Positions 26,911-32,643 of a DNA stretch of 37,501 nt are shown here, piece after piece. Position 1 is the first letter of the stretch. Each line of letters opens with the position of its first letter. This DNA comes from a virus (Duplodnaviria > Heunggongvirae > Uroviricota > Caudoviricetes): the IMG/VR virus record IMGVR_UViG_2526164690_000052, one strand, 5' to 3'. The translations under genes and the position numbers were made by a program. The notes beneath the pieces are model-generated. The model searched no databases and was not told the origin of the DNA. It was given only the letters and a program-made list of their open reading frames with translations.

Positions 26911-27405
26911 TCAGAGCAGCCCCTTAACTGAGCTGGTCGCGCTATTAAGGGATGATGTCACCTTATCTTTGAAGCCGGACAACATATCGCTGAACGATGA
27001 GGATTGCAGGCGCTCCCGCAAATCCTCATCACAGCGTTCAAGAGTCAGTGAAAATTCTATCTTTTTCGCCTTACCGTAGCGATCAAACTCGGAGCGGGTC
27101 GTATTCGTTTCGGTCAGGACATACATGCCGTAAATCTGCCCGACGCCATCAATCAGAGGCCAGGGCCGTCCTGTATACGCCTGCGTGGTCAGCAGAGACA
27201 GCGACACTTCGCCACCTGTAATTTCAGGATAAAGCACACCAGAAAGAACGATGCGATCATCACCTGCACCGATATACTGCCAGCTTGCTGAACGGTTAAC
27301 GCGTTCATTTTTCACATGCCGCCAGCTTTTGTTTTGCTGTAACTGCTGATGCGGCAGCGTGCGCAGCTCAAAAACAAACATGCCATAGATCATCATCATG
27401 GCCAT
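26911..27405 (-). CDS. U: Tail protein gpU
   Basis: 164 aa; P2 U-like (MMMIYGMFVFELRTLPHQQLQ...) directly after tape measure. Confidence 0.8.
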   Translation of the reverse strand: MAMMMIYGMFVFELRTLPHQQLQQNKSWRHVKNERVNRSASWQYIGAGDDRIVLSGVLYPEITGGEVSLSLLTTQAYTGRPWPLIDGVGQIYGMYVLTETNTTRSEFDRYGKAKKIEFSLTLERCDEDLRERLQSSSFSDMLSGFKDKVTSSLNSATSSVKGLL

Positions 27406-27411
27406 GACTCC

Positions 27412-31302: not shown

Positions 31303-32486
31303 CAGGCACCTCCCAGCACCGCAAATGCGGGTTCAAAGTATTCATCAGTAAACGTCTGGTAAAGCTCCATGTCTTCCAGTGGCGGAACGGGCGTATATTT
31401 GTAGCGAATACGCACACGCCCCTGACGTAAATCCGTGGTGCTGTTATCCACCACGTCATACCAGCACTCCGCGCCAATCAGTTTCCCGGCAGTAACCAGC
31501 GAATCCAGTTTTGCCCTGATGGCACTGATAACATCCTTCACGTTCGCAGGCGTCAGTGGACTGTCGATGGTTTCAAACTGCGCTTCCGCAATTGAATCAG
31601 CCAGCACCTGTGCGGTTCGGGTATACACCTCAAAGATGTAGGCGTTCGTTTCCGGTGTGCGGTTGCCCCAGAAGCGGAACCCGTTGCGACGAATAATGGT
31701 CGTGATTTCTTTGTTGTTGAGGCTGTTGGCATCACTGTCTTCGGCCTGCAACGACCAGAAAACATGCCTGGACATCCCCAGCACATTTTTAACAGGAACG
31801 TTGGACAGCGATTTGTGCCAGCCCTGCTCATGGTCAATGTACGCACGAAGGCCGCACGCATAGGCAGGCGCGGGGAACGTTTCGTTTTTGCCACTTTTCG
31901 GGTTGTAGGCGATGAAGTCCGGCCATAAGAGCATCACCTCACGTTCGTTGAATTTCTGGCGGTAGGTAATTGCCTCAGCCATCGTGTTACAGTCATGACA
32001 TGAGGCATACACAAACGCGCGCAGTTTACCCGCAATCACGCACAGGGATTTTGTCACCGCCTCCGTGTCCAGCTCCGGCGCGGCCAGAATACGCGGACGG
32101 TATCCGATGCTTTCATCCTGCTCTGCAACAAGCAGCGCATACATCCCCGTATAGCTGCCGTCAGATTCAGAACCACCGATAACCAGTTGATCCTGCGTCT
32201 TACCGCCTTCTTCTTTGTGTTCAGCCACGCGAACGACGATCACTTTTGTGCTCACCTGGTCTGCAATAGCCTTAAGCGCACGATAAAGCGTCCCCGTAGT
32301 CCCGCATTTTCCCAGCACGTCATTGACGCGGGTCAGCAGTGTGGGCTTGTTCAGCGGGAACAGCTCCGCGTCCGCATCATCCGCCGTTGCCACGATACCG
32401 ATAACACTGGAATCAACATCATTAATCGCTGTTACCAGGTCGGTACTTTCCGTAACACGGGCACCATGAAAACGAGTTTCACTCAT
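31302..32486 (-). CDS. FI: Tail sheath protein FI
   Basis: 394 aa; blocks KLRAF.YAS, RQKF..RE.M..WPDF, EQGWHKSLSNV, RRNGFRFWGNRT, YKYTPVPPLE match P2 FI as recalled. Confidence 0.9.
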   Translation of the reverse strand: MSETRFHGARVTESTDLVTAINDVDSSVIGIVATADDADAELFPLNKPTLLTRVNDVLGKCGTTGTLYRALKAIADQVSTKVIVVRVAEHKEEGGKTQDQLVIGGSESDGSYTGMYALLVAEQDESIGYRPRILAAPELDTEAVTKSLCVIAGKLRAFVYASCHDCNTMAEAITYRQKFNEREVMLLWPDFIAYNPKSGKNETFPAPAYACGLRAYIDHEQGWHKSLSNVPVKNVLGMSRHVFWSLQAEDSDANSLNNKEITTIIRRNGFRFWGNRTPETNAYIFEVYTRTAQVLADSIAEAQFETIDSPLTPANVKDVISAIRAKLDSLVTAGKLIGAECWYDVVDNSTTDLRQGRVRIRYKYTPVPPLEDMELYQTFTDEYFEPAFAVLGGA

Positions 32487-32643
32487 AGCTTCAGCCCCTT
32501 GTATCCGTTAAATGATTCGGCAACAATCATCACCCACCACGCGCGTAATCTCACCCCTGCGCCGTTCTCCCGCCACGGCGACAACAAAAAGCAGTAACCC
32601 CCTATGCACGCACATGCGACCATGCCGCACAGGGAGGGAACAG

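Follow-up and report, generated by a model that had tools for sequence, protein, structure and literature searches.

The reversed FI-to-U tail block of a P88-type phage region is the inherited gene order of a P2-like sub-clade, with a predicted late promoter shared by FI and D

In the P2 record, the tail genes FI, FII, E/E', T, U and D lie on one strand, with D as the last gene of the operon, abutting U and served by the single promoter pF. The window, by which we mean the whole stretch of 37,501 nucleotides analysed here, carries the same genes with FI, FII, E, T and U in the same internal order, but on the minus strand, and with D alone on the plus strand, divergent from FI and 157 bp away from it. 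This raises the questions of whether the arrangement records damage to a single prophage or the inherited order of a lineage, and of how D is transcribed once it is parted from the end of the operon. The first-pass annotation of this DNA had described these strands and this spacing, which the open reading frames and Pfam matches bear out, and had read the block, D excepted, as inverted relative to P2, with which the P2 record agrees. The window is a P2-like prophage that runs from int through the immunity region and the early and replication genes to Q and P on the minus strand and O to G on the plus strand, and then reaches the tail block:

26911-27405, minus strand: gpU tail protein, last gene of the leftward FI-to-U operon (PF06995, E 5.5e-39)
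27412-30255, minus strand: gpT tape measure (PF10145, E 3e-57; 98% identity to P88 T)
30370-30735, minus strand: gpE (98-100% identical to the annotated gpE of P88, PhiR44_2 and O26)
30206-30735, minus strand: E+E' fusion via a -1 frameshift (T TTT TTG at 30424-30418)
30790-31302, minus strand: gpFII tail tube (PF04985, E 7.5e-47; 100% identity to P88 FII)
31302-32486, minus strand: gpFI tail sheath, first gene of the leftward operon (PF04984, PF22671, PF17482)
32487-32643, no strand assigned: FI/D spacer of 157 bp, candidate mirror-symmetric bidirectional late promoter (alignment of 50 spacers)
32644-33744, plus strand: gpD baseplate hub, a separate rightward unit (PF05954)

The tail genes of the window are intact, including the T TTT TTG frameshift site of E/E', and all six tail proteins are full length and 98-100% identical to their P88 counterparts. 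Amino acid identity is 98% to P88 U and 46% to P2 U for gpU, and 98.5% to P88 FI and 45% to P2 FI for gpFI; gpD is 98.6% identical to P88 D and 49% identical to P2 D counted from residue 19, its first ~18 residues allowing no alignment with the P2 protein. The T reading frame opens with a GTG at 30255, and the 2808-bp gene annotated in P88 and O26 corresponds to a start at the ATG at 30219. A Pfam search with E (30370-30735) returned zero matches; a GpE-family coding sequence is annotated in both O26 and P88. The E' reading frame (-1) stays open to 30206, as an ORF spanning 30206-30442, and the annotated E/E' frameshift site of P2 carries the identical heptamer, T TTT TTG. With respect to the contractile tail module of the Peduoviridae, FI, FII, T, gpU and gpD are Pfam-positive with 32-49% amino acid identity to P2, and the -1 frameshift pair E/E' is present; the co-directional FI-to-D operon of the P2/186 type is absent, such that gene order differs and gene content does not. 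D is also preceded by a ribosome-binding site of its own, as the first-pass annotation had proposed, with AGGGAGGG located at 32631-32638, 5 nt ahead of the D ATG.

The same layout is present in infectious relatives. P88 matches the 8.7-kb region at 97% nucleotide identity from 26905 to 33754, and the same region is 94-97% identical in PhiR44_2, phages 520873 and 500465-2, Xuanwuvirus P884B11 and Citrobacter phage phiSM. The records of P88 and PhiR44_2, whose tail block and D region are 96-97% identical to those of the window in nucleotides, place the genes from U to FI (U, T, E', E, FII, FI) on the minus strand and, after them, D and ogr on the plus strand. In these two phages, collinear with the window at 95-97% nucleotide identity, and in phiSM the order and orientation are those of the window, namely G, then the leftward U, T, E, FII and FI, then the rightward D and ogr, and a blastn alignment of the whole window against P88 is collinear, the tail block running in the same sense as its flanks. 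P88 can be induced by mitomycin C, forms plaques, and has been characterized by a one-step growth curve and electron microscopy (PMC5285337). The phage phiSM is plaque-forming and lysogenises E. coli K-12 (PMC6456863); its layout is judged by alignment alone, the tail block of the window being collinear with it (OR565851) at 95.7% nucleotide identity. SEN4/5 form plaques and have contractile tails in electron micrographs (PMC5261728), and they share the layout though their D is only 62% identical to that of the window; Klebsiella phage 3LV2017 (Reginaelenavirus) has it as well. As an aside, the tails of phiSM have been described as long and non-contractile (Siphoviridae; PMC6456863), in conflict with the sheath, tube and tape-measure block of its genome.

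The first-pass annotation had itself stated that close relatives of proven infectivity with exactly this arrangement would mark it as a lineage trait, and P88 and SEN4/5 are such phages. Sequence comparison identifies the tail region of the window as a P88-type module, and the window has the Xuanwuvirus arrangement in which the FI-to-U block and D diverge and ogr follows D. Of the 37.5 kb of the window, 25.5 kb can be aligned to P88, at 95.7% identity. This amounts to ~65% overall with the IS10 element, the morons and the differing immunity module counted, a borderline value beside the ICTV guide of ~70% nucleotide similarity over most of the genome for a genus.

The arrangement is also common and appears to be old. 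Of 5426 complete E. coli genomes, 1109 contain the FI/D junction as one uninterrupted match to a 1.3-kb probe, many of them at 100% identity, for instance O26:H11 strain 11368. We then surveyed D homologues in viral contigs and in a set of genomes with one representative per species, taking the best 80 matches per collection and placing FI, FII, E, T, U, D and ogr at each locus by tblastn. Among the 170 loci obtained from these best 80 matches per collection, FI and D are divergent at 132, U is followed by D in the canonical manner at 35, and three are ambiguous. Identity to the D of the window is 60-100% at divergent loci and 46-52% at canonical ones. The divergent loci span ~20 genera of the Enterobacterales, including Escherichia, Salmonella, Citrobacter, Klebsiella, Enterobacter, Serratia, Erwinia, Pantoea, Pectobacterium, Brenneria, Kosakonia, Edwardsiella, Providencia, Morganella, Xenorhabdus, Photorhabdus, Yersinia and Hafnia, among others. 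The canonical FI-to-D order is that of P2, Fels-2, PsP3, BR319a and BEK, with a phiCTX-like Pseudomonas phage and a Burkholderia phage included; Fels-2 and PsP3 had been suspected of sharing the inverted layout, and their records show the canonical order instead. In neighbour-joining trees rooted on the Pseudomonas and Burkholderia phages, which are simple trees without support values, the divergent loci are monophyletic both for D (126 versus 31 sequences) and for FI (118 versus 25 sequences), with zero canonical loci nested among them. The simplest reading of this monophyly in both trees is a single, old and fixed inversion, which would have occurred in the ancestor of this sub-clade from the Enterobacterales.

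Within the P2-like phages (Peduoviridae), a large and monophyletic sub-clade has this layout as its standard, inherited gene order, which is fixed, widespread and carried by infectious phages; this sub-clade includes Xuanwuvirus/P88, Senquatrovirus/SEN4, Reginaelenavirus/3LV2017 and many prophages of the Enterobacterales. Of the two explanations that the first-pass annotation had offered, that of a natural alternative architecture is borne out, the layout being common to infectious relatives and to many genera. The feature it singled out is real yet ordinary, and was over-interpreted. As a fact the gene order is already known, in that it is visible in the public records of named infectious phages. 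The papers on P88, phiSM, SEN4/5 and Serratia phage PP4 do not mention the inversion; Casjens and Grose (2016), which lies outside this set, may describe it.

If the layout is inherited, D must still be expressed. On its strand only antisense FI lies upstream of it, and D therefore needs a promoter of its own. The FI/D spacer is where such a promoter would be expected, and we aligned 50 non-redundant FI-D spacers, which are highly diverged overall and retain few near-invariant columns. These columns outline three elements in the window:

32564-32589, plus strand: putative Ogr-type activator dyad, GTTCT-N12-ACAACAAAA (core TCT-N12-ACA at 32566-32583, centre 32574.5)
32526-32531, minus strand: candidate FI -10 hexamer, GATGAT (A2, A5 and T6 each in 50 of 50 spacers)
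32615-32623, plus strand: candidate extended -10 of D, TG-n-GACCAT (conserved columns in 50 spacers)

In the left half-site of the dyad, T32566 is kept in 49 of 50 spacers and T32568 in all 50, with G or C at 32567; in the right half-site, A32581 and A32583 are invariant (50/50), C32582 is present in 49, A32584 in 45 and C32585 in 43, and the N12 between the half-sites varies freely across the 50. Of 49 relatives, 48 have the pattern T[G/C]T-N12-ACA between FI and D, and in 47 its centre falls 74-89 bp from the FI ATG. The consensus of P2 late promoters is TGT-N12-ACA (PMC3931495). In place of its TGT, the left half-site reads TCT in 20 of the 50 representatives, the window included, and TGT stands at the same column in 30 of the 49 relatives. 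On the FI side, 41 nt separate T6 of the hexamer from the centre of the left half-site in 47 of 50 spacers. On the D side, G32616 is conserved in 49 of 50, A32619 in all, A32622 in 42 and T32623 in 49 (hexamer 32618-32623), and in 41 of 50 the distance between T6 and the centre of the right half-site is likewise 41 nt. Set against the geometry of P2, these positions predict a transcription start near 32519 on the minus strand for FI and another near 32630 on the plus strand for D, the latter leaving a short predicted leader of ~14 nt. A scan of the spacer for sigma-70 -35/-10 promoters found no match, as is expected of activator-dependent promoters. Between the dyad and the D-side -10, at 32605-32612, there is also a GC-rich block, which has the consensus CGCGCGCG in most relatives and reads TGCACGCA in the window and the other P88-type spacers.

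The geometry of these elements suggests how the inversion could have left D under late control. P2 likewise has an Ogr-type dyad ~82 bp upstream of the FI ATG (82.5 bp in pF), and the same distance is 79-90 bp in 15 of 21 canonical relatives; the agreement with the distance in the window makes it appear that pF moved together with the block. We propose that one ancient inversion flipped FI-FII-E/E'-T-U plus the late promoter pF and left D behind, which would have set D next to the Ogr-binding site of pF, on the upstream side. As this site is dyad-symmetric, flipping FI-to-U along with pF would have given D an existing activator site, and D would now be transcribed from a mirror-image promoter that shares this single site with FI. 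The dyad would lie ~55.5 bp from each predicted start, with each -10 element 41 nt from its half-site. In P2, the pP/pO pair has one annotated activator site 55.5 bp from both transcription starts, matching the ~55.5 bp predicted on each side at FI/D; in P2 this shared-site geometry is known at P/O only, and in the window it would occur a second time. From sequence comparison we infer a bidirectional late promoter at FI/D, Ogr dependence included. The first-pass annotation had suggested such a bidirectional promoter, and its suggestion gains support from the comparative alignment while it stands as an in silico prediction. We lean towards the view that D was handed a ready-made dyad and evolved only a -10 at 41 nt, which would yield a second P/O-like promoter and a late programme run from two activator sites.

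A different reading of the same natural layout is that the dyad serves FI only and that D is driven by an Ogr-independent extended -10, perhaps at a low constitutive level or with different timing. The conserved TG-n-nAnnAT on the D side belongs to a promoter type able to work without a -35 or an activator, and the GC-rich block CGCGCGCG (32605-32612) is conserved on the D side only, both of which would fit this reading. Against it, the spacing of 41 nt from -10 to half-site is found on both sides and stays constant across otherwise diverged spacers, which would be pointless if D ignored the dyad. Exactly such a shared-site geometry is in use at pP/pO of P2, and D is required only in tail assembly. 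We consider this explanation unlikely, and retain the shared dyad as the preferred account of D transcription.

A shared dyad at FI/D would be one of two such sites in the window, the second of which lies in the divergent spacer between P and O, with the candidate activator encoded downstream of D:

13178-13203, plus strand: second copy of the dyad, P/O divergent spacer (exact match to the FI/D dyad pattern)
36911-37171, plus strand: Ogr/Delta-type zinc-finger late activator, 86 aa, intact (PF04606, E 5e-14)

The pattern GTTCT-N12-ACAACAAAA, with 14 specified bases, occurs exactly twice in the window, in the FI/D and P/O spacers, although the pattern was built from the same two sites that it matches. 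With two mismatches allowed, no further dyad sites were found in the window. The P/O site likewise reads TCT, and P88 and PhiR44_2 have dyads at the same two places. A strict search of the window for TGT-N12-ACA gave only irrelevant matches, at 10044 and 34118; it missed the real sites because the phage of the window uses TCT, and these were found through comparative alignment instead. No other plausible Ogr-type site precedes any late gene in the window. The S and V genes (20434-21656) overlap by 4 bp, and no Ogr-type dyad precedes V, whereas P2 has pV. From this arrangement, O through G may form a single late operon of ~12.7 kb. The Ogr-like protein is 99-100% identical to those of P88, PhiR44_2 and O26 and only 36% identical to P2 Ogr, so that the window departs from P2 in both its half-site, TCT, and its activator. 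In the model we favour, this activator (36911-37171) would switch on two bidirectional regions, P/O and FI/D, which would drive four late units, P-Q, O-to-G, FI-to-U and D.

The literature we searched, with Casjens and Grose (2016) outside its coverage, yielded no description of a shared-dyad FI/D promoter or of divergent FI/D control. The shared-dyad model is a modest variant of a known mechanism, undescribed as far as we found. In Smp131, a P2-like phage of Stenotrophomonas, tail genes are redistributed among TGT-N12-ACA late promoters (PMC3931495); this is a different rearrangement in a different lineage, likened to the window by description.

The left end of the block differs from phage to phage. 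Homology to P88 begins at 26905, 6 bp beyond the U stop codon, and the G/U junction is a variable insertion site, where P88 has an invertase cassette and the window has a lambdoid-type stf/tfa/acetyltransferase cassette. Two features of the window adjoin U here:

26869-26901 (approximate), minus strand: stable hairpin directly downstream of the U stop (RNA fold)
26182-26787, minus strand: acetyltransferase (hexapeptide repeat)

Folding of 26790-26915 on the minus strand gave -32.2 kcal/mol (z = -4.4 versus shuffles), and this hairpin, which has no canonical T-run, may terminate the FI-to-U operon. The first-pass annotation had allowed that the acetyltransferase might belong to the inverted segment. 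The gene is missing from P88 and PhiR44_2, and it travels with the stf-tfa cassette: the acetyltransferase, tfa and the terminal part of the tail fibre gene also occur in unrelated phages, JL22 and Ro157c2YLVW among them. It is a separate moron attached to the tail-fibre cassette, outside the inverted block, and the G-acetyltransferase-U junction is contiguous in 494 of the complete E. coli genomes. The gene is AT-rich (GC ~38%), and the sole good sigma-70-like promoter match nearby, at 26834-26806 on the minus strand (10/12 match), belongs to it; promoter and low GC together would fit a gene for lysogenic conversion that the prophage expresses.

Elsewhere, the window departs further from the P88 group. 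Positions 1-3000 hold an integrase/immunity module unlike those of P88 and PhiR44_2, with an integrase only 39% identical, a putative repressor of 216 aa (1385-2035, minus strand) for which Pfam returned no match, and no nucleotide alignment to P88 before ~3.0 kb. An additional late-operon gene (18082-19959, plus strand), placed between R and the lysis genes, encodes a 625-aa protein with DUF1737, a SASA sialate O-acetylesterase domain and DUF6645; neither P88 nor PhiR44_2 aligns over 18030-20024. We take this esterase to resemble the NanS-p esterases of Stx prophages. As judged from these alignments, the window is a mosaic of a P88-type structural module and a different lysogeny module.

Two further differences from the P88 group are lesions. 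Between D and ogr, at 34144-36120, a YecA-family (SEC-C motif) moron is disrupted by an IS10-type transposase gene (34809-36017, minus strand); the moron gene is whole, at 379 aa, in O26:H11 11368. The tfa gene (25561-26138, plus strand) is broken into two ORFs, 135 and 84 aa long. Where the best E. coli genome matches have 2102 bases, the query has 2101, pointing to a 1-bp deletion in the window, and Tfa is intact, at 192 aa, in O26 11368. The first-pass annotation had allowed for a rearrangement in a decaying prophage, of which the IS10 insertion and the Tfa frameshift would be further signs, and the window copy does have both. The otherwise identical O26:H11 11368 prophage has the same layout and neither lesion, and with tfa and the YecA-family gene both intact there, the lesions are independent and strain-specific. 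Decay is also at odds with the identical orientation in plaque-forming P88 and SEN4/5 and in more than 1100 E. coli genomes, and with six full-length tail ORFs so close to those of P88, and we give this reading almost no weight, the infectious relatives refuting it on the terms that the first-pass annotation had set. An assembly artefact, or reversible site-specific inversion by a Hin/Cin-type invertase of the sort that P88 has with its invertible tail-fibre segment directly beside U, is just as improbable, given that many independent complete genomes are among the supporting sequences, that inverted repeats at both junctions were searched for and are absent, as the first-pass annotation had said, that the window has no invertase, and that all 132 loci of the D clade of the window are in one orientation with zero flipped. 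We think it likely that the best explanation overall is an ancient inversion, inherited as a lineage trait, combined with a late promoter at FI/D that shares one dyad.

Our findings indicate that a reversed FI-to-U block is no sign of prophage decay or misassembly when genomes of E. coli and other Enterobacterales are annotated, a point of practical weight given that about one fifth of complete E. coli genomes have it. If the shared-dyad model is true, a dyad-symmetric activator site would allow an inversion to split an operon without the loss of co-regulation, and the late genes of these phages would form a simple two-site regulon, which would be of modest interest to specialists in phage regulation.
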